DNA from: Paludibacteraceae bacterium
Lineage (GTDB): Bacteria > Bacteroidota > Bacteroidia > Bacteroidales > Paludibacteraceae
NCBI GenBank assembly: GCA_017648235.1
Contig: JAGCIZ010000255.1
Span: 1 to 27,723 of the forward strand
Direction: 5' to 3'
Length of the DNA stretch: 27,723 bases
A program made the position numbers and the translations under genes. The notes under the pieces are model-generated. The model was not told where the DNA came from, did no database searches, and was given only the letters and a program-made list of their open reading frames with translations. This document shows, piece by piece, positions 4,473 to 27,723 of the stretch (within the stretch, counting starts at the first letter, position 1; each line of letters starts with the position of its first letter).

Positions 4473-5232
4473 AAGAATTAAAATTATAATATGGCTTTTC
4501 TTTCCAACCATTATCTTTCTTGCGGGTTTTAGTTTTTGGCTTTATACTTGTGTAAAAGAAAATGCTAACAGAGATCTAAGTATTTATAAAAAAGAAATTT
4601 GGAAAATTGAAAAACAAATAGATTCGTTGCAAAATTTGCGTTTGAATTTACCGATATTTTCTATTGTAGATTTTGAGCCAGAAACGGTTAGGAAATCTCT
4701 TTTAAAACATTCAAAAGAAATTTTATTTTTTCAAATGGATTCCGTTTCTTTGAATGGGCGCATTCAAGGTGAGTTTAACGAGTTAATTTTTTTACTTAGC
4801 GAATTATCAAATTTTGCACCTCAGATTATTTTGTATTCATTTCAAATGCAGAAATTAAGTAGCATTTGGCAATTGGATTTTTCTTTAGGCCCTCTTTTAG
4901 CCAAAATGGAAATCACTCAGGCCAGTTTAATTTCTCTTGATTCTTTAGAAAAACGATGGCAAATTCCAAAAGTTCAAAAATTTATTCTAAACAGAGAAAG
5001 GCAAAAAGAAAAGGTTTTGCATACAAATAAACTCCAAGAAAAATGTCTGAAACAAAGTTTTAAAATTCTTGGAGTAGTGGCTGGTTATTCTTGTTTAATA
5101 GAAACACCTACCGGAAAAGAAATGATTTTACAAGGAGAGTCTTTGAATGGGTATAGGGTAGATTCTGTTTTTAATCATTCTGTACTTTTTCGTTGTGGAA
5201 ATGAAACATGGTTAAAGGAAGTTGGGAAATGA
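4462..5232 (+). CDS. Putative PilO/GspM-like plus PilP/GspC(HR)-like fusion protein
   Basis: N-terminal TM, coiled coil, GRIQGEFNELIFLLSEL (PilO/GspM-type pattern), C-terminal FKILGVV...CLIE...GESLNGYRVDSV...SVLF (PilP/GspC-HR-type pattern). Confidence 0.5.
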   Translation: MSHKRIKIIIWLFFPTIIFLAGFSFWLYTCVKENANRDLSIYKKEIWKIEKQIDSLQNLRLNLPIFSIVDFEPETVRKSLLKHSKEILFFQMDSVSLNGRIQGEFNELIFLLSELSNFAPQIILYSFQMQKLSSIWQLDFSLGPLLAKMEITQASLISLDSLEKRWQIPKVQKFILNRERQKEKVLHTNKLQEKCLKQSFKILGVVAGYSCLIETPTGKEMILQGESLNGYRVDSVFNHSVLFRCGNETWLKEVGK

Positions 5233-6173
5233 ATCGTGGAGCTTCTTTACCAATAGTTTTAGCGATTCTTTTTTCTTTACTCCCATTGAGTATGGTTTTG
5301 ATTTCTTTGTCGGATAATGGAATGCAAGGGGTTCTTGTAGAATATAAACGATTTCAAGAATTGTATAAAGCCGAAGCGTCAATTTATGCAAAATTATATG
5401 CTTTGCCAATAAAAAATTTATTTAATGTTCGTATTGAAGAAAATGGTTTTTGGGATAAAGCGTGTGTTAATCTTTTTCAAGGAGAATTATGCGCGGTTTA
5501 TGGTTATGGATTTGAAAATTATCATTTTTTTAAGAATAATTTAGAACTGCAAGAGGTTTTTAAATCCAGACTTTTATCGTTAAAAAATGCTTTATATATA
5601 CAAGATACATTGTATGGGAATCGTTATTTTGAAAGATTGCCTTCGGAATGTTTTGCAGTAGAAAATGGAGATGTTCGTGTTCAGTTAGATTCTTCGTTAA
5701 ATAAAGCTTGTATTTTTTGTTCTGGTGATATTTTATTTCGAGGAAGAGGAAGTGTTGACACTCTTATGCTTTTTGGAGGTGGTGCCATTCGCCTAGAAGG
5801 CGAATGGCGTGTGCGCCATTTAGAAGCGCACACGAGTGAAAAAATTTCACTCACCACCATAAAATTTCAAGGAGTCGTAAGCGCAAGAGAAGTAGCGCTT
5901 GAAAACAGAACTATTGGCGAGTATCCCTCTGTTATAGCTTTAATGCCTGCAAGTTGGAATGGAAAAACTTCGCTTGAATTTCAATACGGTTCACATTTCA
6001 TAGGCACATTATGGAATGCAGAAATCAATTCAGAAATGGATATTTTGCCAGATAAAAATATCAAAGCAAATCTTTTAGGATTTTCAAAAGATTGGGAGTT
6101 GAAAAAAGATATTCCTATGCCGGCATTTTTTGGAGTGCATTCCGGTACACCAATTATATTGGAGTGGCTATGA
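5229..6173 (+). CDS. PilX/GspK-like minor pilin
   Basis: ATGA overlap with the upstream stop; MNRG/ASLPIVLAILFSLL class III signal-like N-terminus lacking Glu+5, as is typical of GspK/PilX. Confidence 0.55.
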   Translation: MNRGASLPIVLAILFSLLPLSMVLISLSDNGMQGVLVEYKRFQELYKAEASIYAKLYALPIKNLFNVRIEENGFWDKACVNLFQGELCAVYGYGFENYHFFKNNLELQEVFKSRLLSLKNALYIQDTLYGNRYFERLPSECFAVENGDVRVQLDSSLNKACIFCSGDILFRGRGSVDTLMLFGGGAIRLEGEWRVRHLEAHTSEKISLTTIKFQGVVSAREVALENRTIGEYPSVIALMPASWNGKTSLEFQYGSHFIGTLWNAEINSEMDILPDKNIKANLLGFSKDWELKKDIPMPAFFGVHSGTPIILEWL

Positions 6174-6481
6174 AAAAGGGGTTTTCTTTATTAGAAATTC
6201 TTGTGTCAGCATTACTTTTAAACTTAGGGATTTATTTGTCTATGCAAGTGCATCAACATTTCTTGCTAATTGAAAAACGGAATAAGCAAGCAAAAGAAAA
6301 GTTCCTTTTGCAAATAGCAACATTAGACTCTCTTGTAAAAGTTCAACCATTGTGTAAGTCAGAAACAATAGAAAAGGACTCTATTGACTTTCATATAGAA
6401 CCTGTATCTATAAATCCACCTTTCGTTCGAGTTGAAGTCAAAGGAAAAAATCTGTGGAGAATTATCCCGTGCAAAATTTAA
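6170..6481 (+). CDS. Prepilin-type N-terminal cleavage/methylation protein
   Basis: ATGA overlap; MKKG/FSLLEILV motif. The ORF-track start at 6092 is too far upstream. Confidence 0.8.
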   Translation: MKKGFSLLEILVSALLLNLGIYLSMQVHQHFLLIEKRNKQAKEKFLLQIATLDSLVKVQPLCKSETIEKDSIDFHIEPVSINPPFVRVEVKGKNLWRIIPCKI

Positions 6482-6696
6482 AAAGCGGTTTTACACTAAT
6501 TGAAATAGCAAGTGCTGCTTTAGCGTCTGCCATTTTAATCTTTTCGGCATTATATTTTTTTACAAGTGAACTCTATGTTATCAATCAAAAGCATAAAGCA
6601 CGGGAAACTTCTCTTGAACAAAGTTTAGATTCATTAAGGCTTTTACGAAAATCAACAATCCGTAAAAAGATTGTCCCCAAAAAATTTCAGCAATAA
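6469..6696 (+). CDS. Small prepilin-type protein
   Basis: GGAGA at 6456-6460, GTG at 6469; MQNLKSG/FTLIEIA motif. Confidence 0.75.
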   Translation: MQNLKSGFTLIEIASAALASAILIFSALYFFTSELYVINQKHKARETSLEQSLDSLRLLRKSTIRKKIVPKKFQQ

Positions 6697-8373: not shown

Positions 8374-8889
8374 TTGAAAAAGCGAGAAATATTGCAAAAA
8401 TGGGCGAAAAATGGTAAAAATCGCGAAGGATTCTCGGAAAGTCTTCGCTCGTTACTTTTTTTTGCTGTAAAAGAGGCTTTAAAAGGGAAATTCCCCGAAA
8501 AAACGCTAATTTCGCCAGAAAAAGCTTTTTCTGAAGTTTTACCTGAAAATCCGCACTTAGTGAGTTGGTTTTCTTTTCCAGAACGTTATGAATCAGAAAT
8601 TCTTGATTTTGCCGTAGAACCTCATTTAGAATTTTTAGCGAAAAACGATAAAAAAGTGATTTTTGAAGAAGATTTGAGGAGTTTTTCTTGCCCAGAAGCT
8701 TCTATTCGGGCTCGTATTTTACTTTCTGCATTGCCAGCTAATTCAAAAGTTTGTTTATTGGTTTCTTCTGGGAATCCTATAGAAAATGTTCCTAGTGCAT
8801 TAATTGCTGATGGCCATTTGATTCTAGAAAGAGAAAAAAAAGGCGATTTTTGGAAGATTTTTATACTTAAACAGAATGAAGTTAAGTAG
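8374..8889 (+). CDS. Protein with C-terminal TusA/SirA-like domain
   Basis: DLRSFSCPEASIRARILL...GNPIENVPSALIADGH...WKIFILK resembles the TusA pattern DLRGxxCP...GEPIxNVPxSLxxxGH. TTG start is uncertain. Confidence 0.55.
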   Translation: MKKREILQKWAKNGKNREGFSESLRSLLFFAVKEALKGKFPEKTLISPEKAFSEVLPENPHLVSWFSFPERYESEILDFAVEPHLEFLAKNDKKVIFEEDLRSFSCPEASIRARILLSALPANSKVCLLVSSGNPIENVPSALIADGHLILEREKKGDFWKIFILKQNEVK

Positions 8890-11875: not shown

Positions 11876-12083
11876 CAAGAACCATTCGCAACAAGAATTG
11901 CTGGGCAAGTGCAAAAAAAAGATTGTTATCGCGAACATAGTGCGGCTTGTCATGGCGAGAGACTTTTAAGACGATGTGGCCATCTTGGTTTTTGTCATTA
12001 CGAGCGTAGCGAAGTAATCAAAAATAAGTGTTGCTTGCAAAGAGATTGCCACGCCGTGCTTTCTGCACGGCTCGCAATGACAA
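11876..12083. repeat. REP/BIME-like palindromic mosaic, copy 1
   Basis: Units TGTC-ATGGC..GCCAT (11948-11985), TGTC-ATTAC..GTAAT (11993-12018) and GAG-ATTGC..GCAAT-GACA (12042-12082). 11948-12049 is a close inverted copy of 18098-18203; 11876-11891 is the exact reverse complement of 17934-17949. Confidence 0.8.
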
Positions 12084-12174
12084 GAAGTGCAGGCAAGTTC
12101 TTTTGCGAGTGATAATGCAAAATAATATTTTCAAAAATTAAAGTACACTTAAAATTAAGTTGCAATAGCAAACA

Positions 12175-17904: not shown

Positions 17905-18270
17905 ACTTGCCCACGAATCTTGCTCATAGCTTCTTGCGAATGGTTCTTGCTCGCGGCTTCTTGCCACTTGCACACAAGTTGTCATTGCGCGCCGTGTAGA
18001 ATACACGGCGCGGCAATCTCCTTACCAGTAGATCGCCACACTGCGTTCGCGATGAGAATCCTTAACTTGTCACTCGCGATGGAACGTAGTGACAGAAGCA
18101 ATCTCATTGCAAGCAACACTTGTTTTTGGATTACTTCGCTACGCTCGTAATGACAAAAAAAACAAGATGGCCGCGTCGTCTTAAAAGACTCCTCGCCATG
18201 ACAACCCTACACTTGCCACAAGCTTCTTGTCATTGCGATGGAACGTAGTGACAGAAGCAATCTCATCGCA
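17905..18270. repeat. REP/BIME-like palindromic mosaic, copy 2 (six units)
   Basis: Units at ~17980-18020, 18030-18058, 18067-18108, 18129-18155, 18165-18203 and 18227-18266. Exact 32-bp direct repeat at 18076-18107 and 18235-18266. Confidence 0.8.
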
Positions 18271-18425: not shown

Positions 18426-19358
18426 ATGACGAAAAAACAAAAAAGACATCATGATAACTTTTTTAGAACCGTTTTCTCTGAACCGAAAAACGCCGCAAGC
18501 CTCCTTACGCTAGCAAGCAAAAGTAACCCGCATCTTGCGGAATTGCTAACACTTGTAAACCTTGATACGCTCCAGGAAATTCCAGGAACGGCTCCACGAG
18601 AAGGTTTCTCCGGACAAAGCGACATTACATTTCAAGTAGAGTTAAACAATTCTAATCAAAAAGCGCATTTAATTGTTGGATTGATTCTTGAGCACAAATC
18701 TTACCGCGATTCAAATGTCCGTAAACAGTTGCTAAAGTATTTCTTCGAAGTAATGCAACAAAAAGCTGGCGATATTCCTGTGGTTGCCATAATCGTTTAC
18801 AATGGTCGCGAAAAATGGAATCCATTAAACGCCAAACCGTACCCAAAATACCCTGAATTTTTCCAAAATGTGGGTTTGCCATTCCATTTGGAATTTATTG
18901 ACGTAGGCCATTCTGAACTTGATTTAAGTTCTTTAGACCCACAATTAGCACTTGTTTTGGTTGCTATGCGTTATGCTTTTGATTCATTTGGGCAACAAGC
19001 CGCTTTTAAAGAAGCACTTGCATCGCTTTTAAAACAAGGAAACAGCTATTCTTCTGTTTTAGAAGAAATTTTGGTATATTTGAGAGAAACGCTTCCACAA
19101 CAAGAAAAGGAAACCATTATGGACTCTTTAGAAGTTTTAGAAAACAAAGGCTACACTTCTATCGCTGAAGCCGATTACGAAGAAGGTTTCCTTGAAGGTG
19201 AGGCTAAAGGCAAAGCGGAAGGCTTTTTGGATGGAGAAATCAAAGGCATTAATGATGCTAAACGTGAAATGGCAAAAGTGATGCTTATGGAAGGAATTCC
19301 TATTGATAAAATCAGAATCATTTCTGGTCTTTCTGAGCAAGAAATTAAAGAACTATAA
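18426..19358 (+). CDS. Rpn family recombination-promoting nuclease / putative transposase (PD-(D/E)XK, YhgA-like)
   Basis: HHDNFFRTVFS, SDITF, ILEHKSY, QLLKY, IIVYNG, TSIAE followed by EG-repeat tail and SGLSEQEI. Confidence 0.88.
   Translation: MTKKQKRHHDNFFRTVFSEPKNAASLLTLASKSNPHLAELLTLVNLDTLQEIPGTAPREGFSGQSDITFQVELNNSNQKAHLIVGLILEHKSYRDSNVRKQLLKYFFEVMQQKAGDIPVVAIIVYNGREKWNPLNAKPYPKYPEFFQNVGLPFHLEFIDVGHSELDLSSLDPQLALVLVAMRYAFDSFGQQAAFKEALASLLKQGNSYSSVLEEILVYLRETLPQQEKETIMDSLEVLENKGYTSIAEADYEEGFLEGEAKGKAEGFLDGEIKGINDAKREMAKVMLMEGIPIDKIRIISGLSEQEIKEL
19119..19358 (+). CDS. Candidate intragenic small Rpn protein (RpnS-like antitoxin, 79 aa), in frame with rpn
   Basis: AAGGA at 19107-19111, 7 nt, then in-frame ATG at 19119, shortly upstream of TSIAE. 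Confidence 0.5.
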   Translation: MDSLEVLENKGYTSIAEADYEEGFLEGEAKGKAEGFLDGEIKGINDAKREMAKVMLMEGIPIDKIRIISGLSEQEIKEL

Positions 19359-19380
19359 TTTTTGAATTGATTTAATCTAA

Positions 19381-19407
19381 CCTCCTGCTTTTCAGCAGGA
19401 GGCTTTT
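19381..19407 (+). terminator. Intrinsic terminator after rpn
   Basis: CCTCCTGCT-TTTC-AGCAGGAGG-CTTTT. Confidence 0.85.
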
Positions 19408-19445
19408 GATTTTTTTACTTGTAAGGACTTCTTGATAAGTTTTAC

Positions 19446-19482
19446 AGATGGCCACGAGGCACAAGACCTCTCTCCATAACAA
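19446..19482 (+). repeat. Degenerate single REP-like unit
   Basis: AGATGGCCACG..CTCTCCATAACAA versus AGATGGCCGCG..CTCGCCATGACAA at 18165-18204. Confidence 0.5.
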
Positions 19483-19487
19483 ATTAT

Positions 19488-20351
19488 TTAAAAATGTTTT
19501 TTTGCCCGAGAATTCTTATTAGAAGCCAATGCAATCCCATTATCCTGAATCACAATTTTCCCTTCGCGGAAAAGCCCACCAATCAACTTTTTAAAAGCCT
19601 TTTTAGAAAGTCCAAAATGTTCTTGAATCTCTTCTGGTGGCGTTTTATCGCCATAAGGCAAAAAACCACCAGCTTCTTTCAATTCGCGAAGCAAACCAGC
19701 ATCATGGGAACGCACCGTATTATAGCCAACAGGAAATCTTGAAAGCGTAATTTTCCCATCAGGACGAATATCTTCAATGTAGCCATCAATCTGATCGCCG
19801 ATATAAAGACGCTCTTCGTTTTTGTGCAAATAAAGCCTGCCATAACTACGAAGGTTAATAAGACATTCTGCAAACGAATCTTCCATTTCGTAAATTGCAA
19901 GAGAAACCTTTTGCCCCACTCGTAACTCGCTAATATCGGTTTCAAAAAAGCGGCGCAACTTTTCGGTAGCCACAAGACGCCCACTTTTCTGGTCGACAAG
20001 TGCATAAATAACGCACTTATCGCCCTTGCGTAATTCGCCACCAAGTTGCTGCTTGTAGGGTAGTAAAAGGTCTTTATCAAGCCCCCAATCTAAAAAAGCC
20101 CCGATAGAATTCACATCTTTCACTTCAAGAACTGCAAAATGGTTTGCTTCAACAAGAGGCGTTTCTGTAGTAGCAATCGGCCTATCTTCGCTATCTAGGT
20201 AGATAAACGCATCAATAAAATCGCCCACTTTTAACCCAACTGGCGCTTTAGAACCAGGCAATAAAACGCGTTCTCCTTGTTCGGTTTCCAAGTAAAAACC
20301 TTGAGGAAGTTCATCTTTCACAACAGTATGGTAAAATCGACCTATTTGCAT
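19488..20351 (-). CDS. cvfB: CvfB/YitL family S1 RNA-binding protein
   Basis: FIYLDSEDRPIATT, GAFLDWGLDKDLLLP, C-terminal winged helix GGFLPYGDKTPPEEIQEHFGLSKKAFKKLIGGL. Confidence 0.88.
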   Translation of the reverse strand: MQIGRFYHTVVKDELPQGFYLETEQGERVLLPGSKAPVGLKVGDFIDAFIYLDSEDRPIATTETPLVEANHFAVLEVKDVNSIGAFLDWGLDKDLLLPYKQQLGGELRKGDKCVIYALVDQKSGRLVATEKLRRFFETDISELRVGQKVSLAIYEMEDSFAECLINLRSYGRLYLHKNEERLYIGDQIDGYIEDIRPDGKITLSRFPVGYNTVRSHDAGLLRELKEAGGFLPYGDKTPPEEIQEHFGLSKKAFKKLIGGLFREGKIVIQDNGIALASNKNSRAKKHF

Positions 20352-20411
20352 GGCATAAAGTTAGTTTATTTTTTCTATTCCGACTTGGAAGACTTCTTTT
20401 TCACAAACCTA

Positions 20412-20440
20412 TTGATTTTTTTTGAAATAGATACTAATTT
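20412..20440 (+). promoter_or_regulatory. Putative sigma70 promoter for sRNA-A
   Basis: TTGATT-17 nt-TAATTT; predicted +1 near 20447 coincides with the 5' end of the structured RNA. Confidence 0.4.
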
Positions 20441-20446
20441 TTCACA

Positions 20447-20522
20447 CATCTGGATGAGTCGTGCAATGCCTGATTCCCGTTGTACGCCAGATACAAAGAA
20501 GCCTTCATCTGGGGGCTTTTTT
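20447..20522 (+). ncRNA. Candidate structured small RNA A
   Basis: AUCUGG/CCAGAU stem, CGUGCAAUG/CGUUGUACG stem, then G-U-rich terminator AAGCCUUCA-UC-UGGGGGCUU-UUUU. No known family recognised. Confidence 0.5.
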
Positions 20523-20554
20523 GTTTTTTTAAGAAAAAATTAAACTCGCACTGC

Positions 20555-20639
20555 AAAAAAAAAGAGAACGACGCCGTTAAGCGCCGCTCTAAATGTTTTC
20601 ACAACGGAATAATCCTTATTGTGAATTGCTTCAGATTTT
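20555..20639 (-). ncRNA. Candidate structured small RNA B
   Basis: UCUGAA/UUUAGA stem, UUCACAAU/GUUGUGAA stem, terminator AGAGCGGCGC-UUAACG-GCGUCGUUCU followed by C and U9. Confidence 0.55.
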
Positions 20640-20645
20640 GAAATA

Positions 20646-20673
20646 AATATACAAAGAAAAATCTGAAAGTCAA
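20646..20673 (-). promoter_or_regulatory. Putative sigma70 promoter for sRNA-B
   Basis: Minus strand TTGACT-16 nt-TATATT; +1 near 20639. Confidence 0.55.
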
Positions 20674-20884
20674 CACTTTTTTTGAAAAATTTTAAAAATA
20701 AAAAAAAGATATGCAATATTTTATTGTGTCAAAAATTGATATAGATTTGTGTTTATTTTTATAAGTTTTGACTTGATGAAAAACAGATAAAAATTGCGGA
20801 AATTCGCACAAAAAAGCAAATTTTTTGAAACTACGTAAGAAAAAAGAGAGTATTTTAGGAGAAAAATGATTTAAGGAGTATAAT

Positions 20885-23800
20885 ATGACAACTATTAACA
20901 AATTTTGTGGACAGGGGAATGGGTATTCAGTTTCAAAAACATTATGTTTTGAATTAAAACCATAGGAAAAACTTTAGAAAATATTTCCACAGGGAAATTT
21001 TTGGAATCAGATAAGAAAAAATCTGAAGATTATAAAGATGCAAAAAAAATAATAGATAATTATCATTGTTATTTTATTGATGATGTATTAAAAACACTGT
21101 CTTTAAATTGGGAAAATTTAGCAAAAGAGATAAATGAATATCGTAAGTCAAAAAGCGACGATGTAAACTTGCTTTCTGCTCAGCAAAAACAACGTGATGA
21201 AATATTAAAAGTATTTAATTCAGATAAACGTTTTAAAGCTTTAATAGCATCAACGCCAAAGGATTTATTTAATAAACTTTTACCAGAATGGTTTAAAAAA
21301 GATAATTCTGTAGAGTTAAATAAAGAAGCAACAGAAACATTTAAAAGATTTTATTCATATTTTAAAGGGTTTCAAGAAAATAGAGAAAATGTATATTCTT
21401 CAAAAGAAATTCCAACAGCCGTTCCATATAGAATAGTAAATGATAATTTTCCAAAATTCTTATCAAACATTTCAGTATTTGAAACAATTCAAAAAAAATG
21501 TCCTGATGTTATTACTGATGTTGAAAATGAACTAAAAGAATATTTAGGAAATGAAAAACTTTCTGATATTTTTTCAATTCAATCTTTTAACAAATATCTC
21601 TGTCAAAGTGGTGCAGAAAATCAAAGAGGAATTGATTTTTATAATCAAATAATTGGCGGCATTGTTGAAAAAGATAAAGAGCAAAATTTACGAGGAATAA
21701 ATCAATTCCTAAATCTTTATTGGCAACAACATCCAGAATTTGCAAAGAACAATAAAAGAATAAAAATGGTTCCTCTTTTTAAGCAGATTTTAAGTGATAG
21801 AACAAGTCTTTCATTCAAAATAGAAGCTATTGATTCTGATGATGAATTAATACAAGCAATTGAAGATTGTGCTAATAAGTTAGAAGAAAAATCAAAAGAT
21901 GATGGAAAATCCATTTTTGAAAAATGTTGTGAATTATTTGATTCTATAAATGAACAAGATTTGAATGAAATTTATATTAACAGAAAAGACATTAATAATT
22001 TTTCGCGTATTCTTACTGGAGATTGGGCTTGGCTACAAGCAAGAATGAATTATTACGCGGAAGAAAAATTTACAACAAAGGCAGAGAAATCTCGCTGGGT
22101 AAAATCTTTAGAAGATGAAGGAGAAAATAAATCAAAGGGATTTTATACACTTGCAGAGTTAAATGATGTTTTAAAATACTCAAGCGATAATATACCTGAA
22201 ACAAATATTAGAATTGCAGATTATTTTGGACGTAGGTATAGATATTTTTACGAAAAAGAAACAGGTAATTATATTCCAAGTGAAGAACTTGTTGCTCTTT
22301 CAATAGAAGAAATGTGTGATGATATTCTAGTAAAAAGAAAAAATATGGATAAGGCATTTGAAACTTCAGAAAAAGAAAAATTACAAGAAGATTCTGAAAC
22401 AGTTTCTAAAATAAAAGATTATCTTGATTCATTGCAAGAATTACTTCATCGCGTAAAACCTTTAAAAGTAAACGGTGTAGGAGAGTCTTCTTTTTATGCA
22501 AATTTTGACACAGTTTATAACGCATTAAAAGAAGTAATTTCTGTTTACAATAAAACCAGAAATTATCTAACAAAAAAAGTAGCATCACCAGAGAAATATA
22601 AATTAAACTTTGATAATCCAACTTTAGCTGATGGATGGGATTTAAACAAAGAACAAGCAAATACATCTGTTTTGTTTCGCAAAAATGGAATGTTTTATAT
22701 TGGAATAATGAATCCAAAAGATAAACCAAAATTTGCTGAAAAATACGAAGTGAAAGATGAAGATTTTTATGAAAAAATGGTTTATAAATTATTACCAGGG
22801 CCAAACAAAATGTTACCTAAAGTTTTCTTTTCTACAAAAGGAAAAGAAACATTTAATCCTCCAAAAGAAATCTTAAACGATTATGAAAAAGGTAAACATA
22901 AAAAAGGAGATTCATTTGACATTGATTTTTGTCATAAATTAATTGATTGGTTTAAAAATGCTATAAATCAACATGAAGATTGGAAAAAATTTGATTTCAA
23001 ATTCTCTGATACAAAAAATTATAAAGATATAAGTGATTTTTATCGTGAAGTAACAGAACAAGGCTACAAACTTTCTTTTACAAATATTCCTGTGTCAGAA
23101 ATTGAAAAAATGGTTGAAGATGGAAAACTTTATTTGTTCCAAATTTACAACAAAGATTTTTCATCAGAATCAAAAGGAACACCAAATATGCATACTCTTT
23201 ATTGGAAAAATCTTTTTAGTGAAGAAAATCTAAAAGATGTGTGTTTAAAATTAAATGGAGAAGCAGAACTTTTTTATCGTCCTGTTGGAATCAAAAATCC
23301 TATCGTGCATAAAAAAGATTCGTATCTTGTAAACAAACTTACAAAAGATGGTAAATCTATTCCAGAAAATATTTATGAAGAAATTTATAAAAACGCTAAT
23401 GGAAAATTGGATAAACTTTCAAAAGATGCTGAAGAATATAAAAGAACTCATGATGTTGTCATAAAAGTTGCAAAACATGACATTATAAAAGACAAACATT
23501 ATACGGTGCCAAAATTCTTGTTCCATGTTCCAATTACAATTAATTTCAAAGCTTCTGGAAATTCTTATTCATTAAATGAAAATGTAAGAAAATTTCTAAA
23601 AAATAATCCAGATGTTAATATTATTGGACTTGATAGAGGGGAACGTCATTTGATTTATCTTTCATTAATAAATCAAAAAGGAGAAATTCTAGAACAGTTT
23701 AGTTTTAATACAGTTGAACAAAGTCGAAATGATGCTGAACCAAGAATCATTGATTATCATGAAAAATTAAATCAACGGGAAAAGGAACGAGATGAAGCTA

Positions 23801-24864
23801 GAAAAAGTTGGCAAACAATAGGAAAAATTGCTGAATTAAAAGAAGGCTATCTTTCTGCTGTAATTCATAAACTTGCACAGTTAATGATTAAACATAACGC
23901 AATAGTTGTAATGGAAGATTTAAACTTTGGATTTAAACGAGGTCGTTTCCATGTAGAAAAACAAGTTTATCAAAAATTTGAGCATATGCTTATTGATAAA
24001 TTAAATTATCTTGTTTTTAAGGATAAAGGACTTACTGAAGCTGGTGGAGTTCTGAATGGGTATCAACTTGCAAGTCAGTTTGAGAGTTTCCAAAAATTAG
24101 GAAAACAATCTGGGATGTTGTTTTACGTGCCTGCAGGTTATACTTCAAAAATTGATCCTAAAACTGGCTTTGTAAATATGTTCAATTTTAAGGATTTAAC
24201 AAATGTTCATAAAAAGCGTGATTTCTTCAGTAACTTTAAAAGTATATCCTTTGATAACGATACAGATTCTTTTGTGTTTACTTTTGATTACAAAGACTTT
24301 AACGGAAAAGCAAAAGAAGAAATGTTTATTAGTAAATGGTCTGTTTATTCAAGAGAAAAAAGAATTGTGTATTATTCAAAAACAAAATCTTATGAAGATG
24401 TTTTGATTACAGAAAAACTAAAATCAGCTTTCCAAAAAGTGAATATCGATTATACAAACGGAAATGATTTATTAGATTCTATTATGGGAATTGGTGCTGA
24501 TTTGAAAAATGGAGAAAAACCATCTAAAGAAGTTGCAGATTTCTGGGATACATTGCTTTATAACTTCAAACTTATTCTTCAAATGCGTAACTCCAATGCA
24601 CGAACCGAAGAGGATTATATTATTTCACCAGTAAAAGCTCCTGATGGAACTTTCTTCGATTCTCGTGAAGAAGGTAAAAAAGAACACAATGCAACCTTAC
24701 CAAAAGACGCAGACGCAAACGGTGCATATCATATTGCATTAAAAGGCTTGAGTTTATTAAAGCGATTTGATGTAGCAGATGAAAAGTCTTTGAAGAAATT
24801 TGATATGAAAATTTCCAACGCCGATTGGTTTAAGTTTGTTCAGGAGAAAGAATATAAGGATTAA
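20885..24864 (+). pseudogene. cas12a: cas12a (type V-A effector) with a 1-nt frameshift at ~20962; real lesion or sequence error
   Basis: AAGGAG plus ATG 20885 gives MTTINKFCGQGNGYSVSKTLCFELKP then TAG (20963-20965); the -1 frame continues IGKTLENI into the 21001-24864 ORF. RuvC IIGLDRGERHL, VVMEDLN and DADANGAY, Nuc LQMRNS and PI KLLPGPNKMLPKVF are all intact. Confidence 0.9.
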
Positions 24865-24914: not shown

Positions 24915-25496
24915 ATGGAACTTTACCTAAAAATTAGTTATCTAAACGATTTTATATTTTGTCCGCTTTCAATTTATTATCATCAGCTTTATGGAAGCCT
25001 TTCTGAACGTCTTTATTATGGAGCACCGCAATTAGACGGAAAGGCTGCACATGAAGCAATTGATGAAAAACGATATTCAACCCATAAAAATATTTTGCAA
25101 AGTTTAGATATTTATTCTGATGAGTATAAATTGTGTGGCAAAATAGACATTTTTGATACTGAAAAAGGTTTGCTAACTGAACGTAAAAAGCATATTGAAA
25201 CAATTTATGACGGATATGTTTTTCAGTTGTATGCACAATGTATGTGTTTGCGAGAAATGGGGTATACAGTAAAACAACTTAGATTTTATTCTAGTGATGA
25301 TAATAAATTATATCCTATTCCTTTGCCAGAAGATGATGTTCAAATGTTTGAAAAGTTCAAGACAACAAACAAAGCAATGCAAAATTTTAATATGGAATCT
25401 TTTGTGCCACAAAATGAAGATAAATGTAAAAACTGTATTTACAACGATTTTTGCGACAGACCATTAGCACCAAAATCCTATAACGGAGGATTTTAA
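24915..25496 (+). CDS. cas4: Type V-A Cas4
   Basis: LNDFIFCPLSIY, GKIDIFD, LTERKK, QLYAQ, CKNCIYNDFC Fe-S cysteines. Confidence 0.93.
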   Translation: MELYLKISYLNDFIFCPLSIYYHQLYGSLSERLYYGAPQLDGKAAHEAIDEKRYSTHKNILQSLDIYSDEYKLCGKIDIFDTEKGLLTERKKHIETIYDGYVFQLYAQCMCLREMGYTVKQLRFYSSDDNKLYPIPLPEDDVQMFEKFKTTNKAMQNFNMESFVPQNEDKCKNCIYNDFCDRPLAPKSYNGGF

Positions 25497-25497
25497 A

Positions 25498-26469
25498 ATG
25501 ATGAGTACAAGAGATTTTGAACATAAACAAATTGCTTTTGTTTTTACAGATGAAGAAGAAAAAATCAGTTTCAAAAATGATAATTTAATTGTGGCCGATA
25601 GAGATGGAAAAATAAAACATCAATCAACTTGTTATAGACTTTTTGCGTTATTTATTTGTGGTAATTATTCTTTAACAACGGGTGTTTTAGAAAAATCAAA
25701 AAAATTTGGATTTACTATTGTTTTTATGACTCCAAATTTACGAGTAACTTCAATTATGCCTGCCAAAGCCGAAGGGAATGTTTTGCTTAGACAAAAGCAA
25801 TATTTTTATAATCAGACGGATATTGGTGCATATATTATTTCAAATAAATTACATAATCAGAATTTTTTGTTAAAACGGAAACGCTCAAAAACAGAACATG
25901 AAAAAATGATTATTGAAAAATTAGATGAATATGAAAAAATAGTTTTAGCACCTGGCTTGAGTTTACAAGAAATTATGGGAATAGAAGGAATAGGCGCGAA
26001 AATTTATTTTAATTCTCTTTTTTCTGCTTATGATTGGAAATCTAGACAACCAAGAGTGAAAAATGATATTACAAATACTTTGATGGATATTGGTTATACG
26101 ATTTTATTTAATATTATAAACGCTCTTTTAGAAATGTATGGTTTTGATGTTTATGTCGGTGTGTTGCATACACAATTTTTTCATAGAAAATCATTAGTTT
26201 GTGATTTAGAAGAACCTTTTAGACCTATTGTTGATTCTGCTATTTTAAAAGCTCTTAATTTAGGACAAGTAAAAGAAAAAGATTTTTGGAAAAAGCAAAA
26301 TCAATATATACTTCCATGGAAAAATTCTAAAAAGTATGTAGGGATTATTTTAGAGGCAATTTTAGAATACAGAAATGAAATATTTATATACCTTCAGAAT
26401 TATTATAGAGCGTTTATGCAAGAAAAACCTATTCAAGAATTTCCTGTATTTTATATGGAGGAAGCTTAA
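25498..26469 (+). CDS. cas1: Type V-A Cas1
   Basis: MGIEGIGAKIYF, NTLMDIGYTILF, GVLHTQF, SLVCDLEEPFRPIVD; GGAGG RBS. Confidence 0.95.
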   Translation: MMSTRDFEHKQIAFVFTDEEEKISFKNDNLIVADRDGKIKHQSTCYRLFALFICGNYSLTTGVLEKSKKFGFTIVFMTPNLRVTSIMPAKAEGNVLLRQKQYFYNQTDIGAYIISNKLHNQNFLLKRKRSKTEHEKMIIEKLDEYEKIVLAPGLSLQEIMGIEGIGAKIYFNSLFSAYDWKSRQPRVKNDITNTLMDIGYTILFNIINALLEMYGFDVYVGVLHTQFFHRKSLVCDLEEPFRPIVDSAILKALNLGQVKEKDFWKKQNQYILPWKNSKKYVGIILEAILEYRNEIFIYLQNYYRAFMQEKPIQEFPVFYMEEA

Positions 26470-26744
26470 TGTTGTTAGTAAGTTATGATATTTGCAATGA
26501 TAAAGTTAGAACGAAATTCTCAAAATTTTTATCAAAATTTGGTTTTCGATTACAGTATTCTGTTTTTGAAATTCATAATAGCGAAGCTGTTTTACGAAAT
26601 ATTATGACTGAAATTGAAAATAATTATGTTAAGTCCTTTACGGAGGAAGATAGCATTATTATATTTAACTTGTCTGCAACTTGTAAAAAAACTTGTTACG
26701 GATATGCCAAAAATGAAGAAAAAGATTTCTTTCTGATTGGTTAG
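26469..26744 (+). CDS. cas2: Cas2
   Basis: LLVSYDI, GFRLQYSVFE; TAATG overlap with cas1. Confidence 0.95.
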   Translation: MLLVSYDICNDKVRTKFSKFLSKFGFRLQYSVFEIHNSEAVLRNIMTEIENNYVKSFTEEDSIIIFNLSATCKKTCYGYAKNEEKDFFLIG

Positions 26745-26860
26745 TTGCAAACCCTGAGTCTTACTGGAAATTTGTTATGAAAATAAGGTGTTTTTTATTA
26801 AAAAATAGCTTTAAAATAGCGAAATCTAGTGAAATTCAGTACTGTTGTACATATGCAAGG
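26745..26860 (+). promoter_or_regulatory. CRISPR leader
   Basis: 116-bp AT-rich non-coding stretch between cas2 and the first repeat. Confidence 0.75.
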
Positions 26861-27723
26861 GTTTAAACGAACTATTAAATTTCTACTGTTGTAGATAATC
26901 AATGCACGATTTATCATTTTGAGTTTAAACGAACTATTAAATTTCTACTGTTGTAGATCGGTGTGTTCGCAGACCGTGCCTATGTTTAAACGAACTATTA
27001 AATTTCTACTGTTGTAGATAACACCAAGAACACTTTGGATACATGTTTAAACGAACTATTAAATTTCTACTGTTGTAGATGTGCGAACCTCTTGCTCTGT
27101 TGTGTGTTTAAACGAACTATTAAATTTCTACTGTTGTAGATTGGGGGGGGGCTTTGGGTGCTTGTGGTTTAAACGAACTATTAAATTTCTACTGTTGTAG
27201 ATGCGGAGTCTATTTCTGCATTAACAGAAGTTTAAACGAACTATTAAATTTCTACTGTTGTAGATAGTTCAATTTCTAACCAAATTTTTAAAGTTTAAAC
27301 GAACTATTAAATTTCTACTGTTGTAGATCTTGGTACTTGAGTAATGAGAACGAAGTTTAAACGAACTATTAAATTTCTACTGTTGTAGATTTGACTTGGT
27401 TTTTTGAGTTTTTGTGTTTAAACGAACTATTAAATTTCTACTGTTGTAGATAAACATTTTGGCAAGTTCCCGAACTGTTTAAACGAACTATTAAATTTCT
27501 ACTGTTGTAGATACTATTTGGGAATGACTGAAGAAGAGTTTAAACGAACTATTAAATTTCTACTGTTGTAGATCTGGTATTTATGAATTTAAACAAGATG
27601 TTTAAACGAACTATTAAATTTCTACTGTTGTAGATATACCGCTGCTTATTGTGCGGTAACGTTTAAACGAACTATTAAATTTCTACTGTTGTAGATAACA
27701 GTTTGATTGTACTTATCTTGCAC
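26861..27723 (+). CRISPR. Type V-A CRISPR array, 14 identical 36-bp repeats, probably continuing past the window
   Basis: Repeat GTTTAAACGAACTATTAAATTTCTACTGTTGTAGAT (Cas12a handle AATTTCTAC-TGTT-GTAGAT) starts at 26861, 26923, 26984, 27045, 27106, 27167, 27230, 27293, 27355, 27416, 27477, 27538, 27600 and 27661. Thirteen unique 25-27 nt spacers plus a 27-nt terminal segment. Confidence 0.98.

Follow-up and report, generated by a model that had tools for sequence, protein, structure and literature searches.

The window analysed here, a stretch of DNA of 27,723 nucleotides, carries a type V-A CRISPR-Cas locus in which the cas12a gene is interrupted near its N-terminus and the remainder of the system looks undamaged. 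This raises the question of how the interruption came about. The original prediction, which was made from the sequence alone, offered three readings: a recent switch-off of interference with adaptation retained, a reversible switch, or an error of assembly. We examined the reading frames, the relatives of the locus, its CRISPR array and the provenance of the contig in order to weigh these readings against each other.

The cas12a reading frame is broken after codon 26

The frame opened by ATG 20885 ends at TAG 20963-20965 after 26 residues, and the -1 frame, which is open from position 20953, takes up the homologous part of the gene at ATA 20962 and runs to a stop codon at 24862-24864 (Table 1). 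When the 26 N-terminal residues are joined to the 1300 downstream codons, the result corresponds with no gap to the 1326 aa of the intact relatives P0004 and L010, the junction falling between KP and IGKTLENI. The sequence frames bear out what had been claimed for this part of the gene, namely the AAGGAG followed by ATG 20885, the TAG at 20963, the frameshift near the N-terminus and the canonical KPIGKTLENI fused to an intact remainder. The window does not contain an uninterrupted Cas12a reading frame, as a one-base deletion leads to a TAG after codon 26. Reading the TAG as a sense codon does not repair cas12a, since the downstream part sits in another frame.

The first canonical start codon of the downstream frame is TTG 21001, from which the original list of open reading frames began the gene, and the ORF of 1287 aa that starts there is the one reported by gene callers. 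A weak AGGGA lies 5 nt 5′ of this TTG.

At codon 21 (20945-20947), the Arg of the N-terminal SKTLRFEL motif, which is conserved in known Cas12a proteins, is replaced by Cys in the window as well as in L038 and L010, and it is Arg in the next relatives (P0009, P0028 and P0030). Since the intact genes of this clade carry the same change, the Cys is not a sign of decay.

Table 1. Position, strand and supporting observations of the features of the cas12a locus in the window.
Feature	Position	Strand	Details and evidence
Shine-Dalgarno sequence AAGGAG of the true cas12a start	20873..20878	+	6 nt 5′ of ATG 20885; kept in L010 and L038
cas12a N-terminal remnant, 26 codons then TAG	20885..20965	+	26/26 residues shared with the intact P0004 and L010
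Deletion site: T missing between C20961 and A20962; Pro26 CCT to CC	20961..20962	+	Alignments; five relatives with CCTAT
cas12a remainder, -1 frame, 1300 codons and stop, no further lesion	20962..24864	+	Frame, Pfam, alignment
TTG, first canonical start of the downstream frame	21001..21003	+	Product without residues 1-39; equals protein P0003
cas4	24915..25496	+	Pfam Cas_Cas4
cas1	25498..26469	+	Pfam Cas_Cas1, E 1.9e-49
cas2	26469..26744	+	Pfam CRISPR_Cas2
CRISPR array, 14 identical 36-nt repeats ending TCTACTGTTGTAGAT	26861..27723	+	Repeat reading
Spacer 2, second from the cas2 side	26959..26983	+	Exact 25/25 match to viral contig L059

The missing base is the T of the Pro26 codon

A comparison with sister genomes, which the original prediction had proposed, was made at the lesion with four genome loci (L010, L011, L022 and L023) and one metagenome contig (L038). 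All five are in frame at the deletion site. In the DNA alignment they have AAACCTAT.GG and the window has AAACCATAGG; CCT ATA in the relatives has become CC ATA in the window. Because all five relatives carry CCTAT, the lost base is the T of Pro26 and not an A; the repair first put forward, from CCATA to CCAATA by the restoration of one A, therefore names the wrong base. The deleted T stands alone in CCTATA, outside any homopolymer or short repeat, the nearest runs being A4 and C2.

Integrity of Cas12a and of the type V-A system

In the downstream frame, Pfam detects REC1, REC2 (cas_Cpf1_2nd), PI (Cpf1_PI-like), RuvC_1 (E-value 2.6e-103) and NUC (E-value 2.2e-42) at full length. An alignment to FnCas12a (5mga) places the RuvC D/E/D residues and the Nuc Arg on D917, E1006, the DADANG motif and R1218, and the Lys of the RNase site (K869 equivalent) is also in place. 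The effector is thus of the type V-A kind, a single large protein that has a split RuvC (D, E, D) and a Nuc domain but lacks HNH; REC1, REC2 and PI are accompanied by the N-terminal WED motif, which lies in the upstream frame. The domain order (WED, REC1, REC2, PI, RuvC, Nuc) is the same as in the Cas12a proteins with solved structures (FnCas12a 5mga/5nfv, AsCas12a 5b43, LbCas12a 5id6 and ReChb 8qwd), in which the RuvC D/E/D, Nuc Arg and RNase Lys are likewise present. Unlike in these proteins, the frame in the window is broken after codon 26.

The surrounding system has the features of known type V-A loci, with which it shares the end of the repeat, which carries a 3′ stem-loop handle, the cas4-cas1-cas2 operon and a T-rich 5′ PAM, TTTG. 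Pfam, the FnCas12a alignment and the reading of the repeats all agree with the earlier statement that the RuvC D/E/D, cas4, cas1, cas2 and the 14 identical repeats show no decay. The locus is of the standard type V-A kind, and the frameshift in its effector is single, very recent and probably real.

The gene shows no sign of relaxed selection

The metagenome contig L038 represents the same chromosomal site as the window, with the cvfB gene and the intergenic region upstream in common, and is 98.4% identical to the window over 3.8 kb (window 19023-22787). Its cas12a is intact (1370 aa) and is followed by cas4, cas1 and cas2. Over the first 327 codons, the two genes are separated by one substitution, derived in L038, and by the deletion, and the lost T is the only indel between them within coding sequence, every other indel being intergenic. 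The dN/dS of the window cas12a against L038, L010 and L011 is 0.09-0.15, equal to the value among the intact genes, and the 1300 downstream codons are free of any stop.

Nothing points to relaxed selection, and the break, if it is real, is very young. A very young age follows from the absence of a second lesion together with a dN/dS like that among intact genes, and the same two observations speak against an old, decaying pseudogene. The frameshift and the soundness of the remaining gene and system are borne out, and a recent switch-off of interference, which was among the readings first proposed, is the best one.

Binning of the window contig

The window contig (C271 of G000) is the longest contig of its bin. 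The RpoB of the metagenome-assembled genome (MAG) has 99% identity to the sister genome G002, 80% to G006 and about 50% to the Fibrobacteraceae genome G167. The window itself is collinear with two Fibrobacteraceae genomes, G181 (93-96% identity) and G167 (about 70%), and no counterpart of it was found in five genomes of the same genus as the MAG. The SulP protein encoded in the window reaches at most 54% identity in 150 genomes of the family of the MAG, and 72-91% to Fibrobacter/Fibrobacteraceae. Judged by these comparisons, the contig is mis-binned and of Fibrobacteraceae origin, and genome-wide CRISPR inferences from this MAG would mislead because of the mis-binning.

The CRISPR array and a possible selection for the loss

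The array contains 13 whole spacers of 25-27 nt and one that is cut by the contig end. The protospacer of spacer 2 lies on the minus strand of L059, an IMG/VR viral contig, at positions 8375-8399, with TTTG directly 5′. This is the correct Cas12a PAM, and the array holds genuine, properly selected viral memory. Five other spacers had no exact viral match, and the L059 virus, when searched for in the MAG, was not present. A degenerate partial repeat ending TACTGTTGTACAT (26827-26853) is present after cas2 and ahead of the first full repeat, on the expected leader side.

Since the mutation of a cas gene is a known escape route from self-targeting (PMC6990116), the deletion could have been selected, interference having been turned off on account of a self-targeting spacer or of a prophage or plasmid, and the adaptation genes having been retained. 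The lesion is indeed single, young and confined to the effector. However, neither the 13 whole spacers nor the partial one matched the MAG or the two nearest Fibrobacteraceae genomes, G181 and G167, which is a weak test, as the array is cut by the contig end and a spacer search of a MAG into which the contig was mis-binned says little about the real host. Moreover, a young neutral or mildly deleterious mutation fits the data equally well, and we consider it rather unlikely that the loss was selected.

In comparison with the loss-of-function mutations of cas genes that have been described, whether through escape from self-targeting or through plain decay (PMC6990116), the window has one effector lesion beside an intact array and intact adaptation genes, and its array yielded no self-targeting spacer in the search above. 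Unlike those losses, moreover, the lesion postdates every other change that can be detected in the gene. Searches of the literature for Cas12a pseudogenes of natural origin gave genome-editing papers only. The window offers a fresh example of a well-known event, the inactivation of a cas effector, and no new mechanism.

The deletion is very probably a real mutation

In Logan and ENA, the truncated 1287-aa ORF occurs on four contigs that differ in length, the longest of them having 80,964 nt, and the exact Cas4, Cas1 and Cas2 of the window are each found on four contigs with the same longest one. These contigs, which may all derive from one sample, imply that at least one assembly beyond the 27.7-kb contig carries the broken gene. 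Among 5.8 billion proteins, there was no intact cas12a allele of more than 95% identity. In the protein records, Cas4, Cas1 and Cas2 are listed from NCBI and the Cas12a ORF is not, from which it appears that the NCBI annotation treats this ORF as a pseudogene.

The contig is collinear with the sister genome G181 over 18 kb (92.6-94.3% identity), and all gene bodies in this part are uninterrupted. Of the single-base differences, three lie within listed ORFs, in A runs and at most about 35 nt from an ORF end. Three consecutive overlapping ORFs at 5208-6696 were considered as a second frameshifted gene and rejected, since Pfam suggests separate small pilin-like genes and there is no indel relative to G181.

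A consensus or sequencing error, with an intact cas12a in the living strain, would be in keeping with the state of the source MAG, which is fragmented and contaminated (353 contigs, 6% contamination), and with the lack of decay in the rest of cas12a, which is how an artefact would look. It would also accord with the eight single-base indels relative to G181: in seven of them it is the window that lacks the base, mostly within A or T runs (window sites 1545, 9459, 9849, 11960, 12020 and 15413). This skew may be natural, or one of the two assemblies may be slightly prone to deletions. Nevertheless, CCTATA is not a homopolymer, the truncated ORF is found on four contigs that are not of one length, the protein collection holds no intact allele of the strain, and the contig has no other broken gene body. 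Hence, we regard an artefact as unlikely and the deletion as very probably a real mutation. The assembly error that the original prediction had left open keeps a small probability, lower than was then allowed, given the four contigs with the truncated ORF.

On other contigs of the MAG, the reading frame switches relative to the sister species G002 in 3 of 188 genes (C106 at about 2760, C161 at about 4514 and C227 at about 1440), all of them genes of the main organism. Two of these three sites lie in T runs and one near a contig end. It is therefore not unusual in this assembly to meet a broken reading frame, whatever its origin, and this counts against a real mutation.

Recoding, phase variation and re-initiation

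It is very improbable that interference was silenced on purpose with the memory module kept on, either in such a way that spacers would be acquired and stored without cutting, or with a trickle of Cas12a, arising from a -1 slip on A-AAA or from re-initiation, that would provide a low, non-toxic immunity.

Full-length Cas12a might still be made if the site allowed programmed or leaky -1 frameshifting, or if it were a hypermutable site of phase variation. A -1 shift is in the direction needed and would restore the protein, as it does at the programmed sites of dnaX and the transposases of IS elements, and the tRNA-Lys on AAA 20957-20959 could re-pair on AAA 20956-20958, which would give a full-length product with Thr in place of Pro26. 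In contrast to the dnaX and IS element sites, however, UUA AAA CCA UAG contains no X XXY YYZ heptamer, so that only a single-tRNA slip on A AAA is possible, and there is no convincing structure, the 100 nt downstream of the site not folding clearly better than shuffled sequence (MFE -11.7 kcal/mol, z = -1.44, with 15 of 200 shuffles equally stable). Conservation is also missing, as L010, L011, L022, L023 and L038 are in frame at the same sequence and use one frame, and nothing is conserved as a recoding site.

As for phase variation, the deletion in CC-T-ATA does not lie in a long homopolymer or a short tandem repeat, and the site has no repeat tract to make reversion easier. The reversible switch suggested at the outset finds no support, because CCTATA is no homopolymer or simple repeat and all relatives are in frame. 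Programmed frameshifting and phase variation are rejected as designed mechanisms, a trace of read-through being conceivable, and the continued production of full-length Cas12a is extremely unlikely.

It is scarcely credible that a short Cas12a starting at TTG 21001 works, perhaps with the 26-residue peptide in trans: re-initiation is conceivable there, with the AGGGA in place and the upstream stop just 36 nt off, and the break lies at the boundary of the first WED segment and REC1, but residues 1-39, which this protein would lack, contain SKTL.FEL.P.GKT, the N-terminal motif that is best conserved across the family; the motif aligns with the solved structures and is kept in 120 of 120 homologues not cut by contig ends, among the matches listed, and residues 27-39 are absent from both pieces.

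Proposed course and consequences of the deletion

A real and recent loss-of-function deletion in cas12a is the likely explanation of the locus. On this explanation, a single T would have been lost from codon 26 (CCT, Pro) of cas12a in a Fibrobacteraceae strain, and ribosomes starting at ATG 20885 would since then produce a 26-residue peptide and stop at TAG 20963. This peptide we take to be roughly the first WED segment, that is, residues 1-23 of AsCas12a in the numbering of Yamano et al. 2016. Translation of the remaining 1300 codons would depend, at best, on weak re-initiation at TTG 21001, and the loss of residues 1-39 would deprive the resulting product of the first WED strands and of the beginning of REC1. 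Without a working Cas12a in the cell, as far as can be judged from what is known of its domains, the pre-crRNA would not be cut by Cas12a and there would be no DNA interference. Cas12a itself reportedly matures its crRNAs (Fonfara et al. 2016), and hence crRNA processing and interference are both expected to be lost. Cas4, Cas1 and Cas2 are intact, although polarity might lower their expression should they share a transcript with cas12a.

CRISPR effector genes are often lost by single mutations, and the frameshift alone matters little. For practical purposes, this orthologue of Cas12a should be obtained from one of the intact sister alleles, L038 or L010, instead of the present record. If reads from several animals had the broken allele fixed in a strain with a fresh, PAM-correct viral spacer in its array, it would provide a clean natural snapshot of the loss of immunity just after the event.

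Surroundings and mosaicism of the locus

CRISPR cassettes have been swapped at one site (window 20558-20885 compared with L071 1955-9791). Where the window and L038 hold cas12a-cas4-cas1-cas2, G181 holds a complete type I-C operon (cas3, cas5d, csd1, cas7, cas4, cas1 and cas2). The homology between the window and G181 breaks off some 24 nt short of the start codon of the first cas gene, and the upstream 300 nt are common to both CRISPR types.

A 40-nt stretch 5′ of cas12a (20592-20631) has 97.5-98% identity to the anti-repeat part of a Cas9 tracrRNA, with matches at 5123-5162 of contig C4 of G000 and at 86911-86950 of contig C4 of G002. The matched tracrRNA adjoins an intact cas9-cas1-cas2 module and an array with long repeats, which belong to the main organism of the MAG, a member of another family. 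We considered the intact Cas9 system on contig C4 as a back-up immunity of the same cell and rejected it, because the window is mis-binned and G002 has the same tracrRNA stretch, which assigns the Cas9 of C4 to the main organism.

The PAM-interacting region of cas12a (22787-23065) is mosaic: L038, L023 and P0030 have a longer, dissimilar block between flanks that are 88-99% identical. This pattern suggests that PAM modules are exchanged as blocks by recombination among near-identical cas12a genes. Cas12a genes of 88-95% identity occur in MAGs labelled Fibrobacteraceae, Treponemataceae and Spirochaetota (L010, L011 and L023 included), which come from ruminant and other animal guts. Their distribution reflects either a recent transfer between phyla or further binning errors.

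Elsewhere in the window, REP-like intergenic repeats at 11876-12170 and 17905-18270 are multi-copy in G167 and G181, with dozens of matches, and a YhgA/Rpn-type transposase-like gene (18426-19358) is likewise present in several copies in these two related Fibrobacteraceae genomes.
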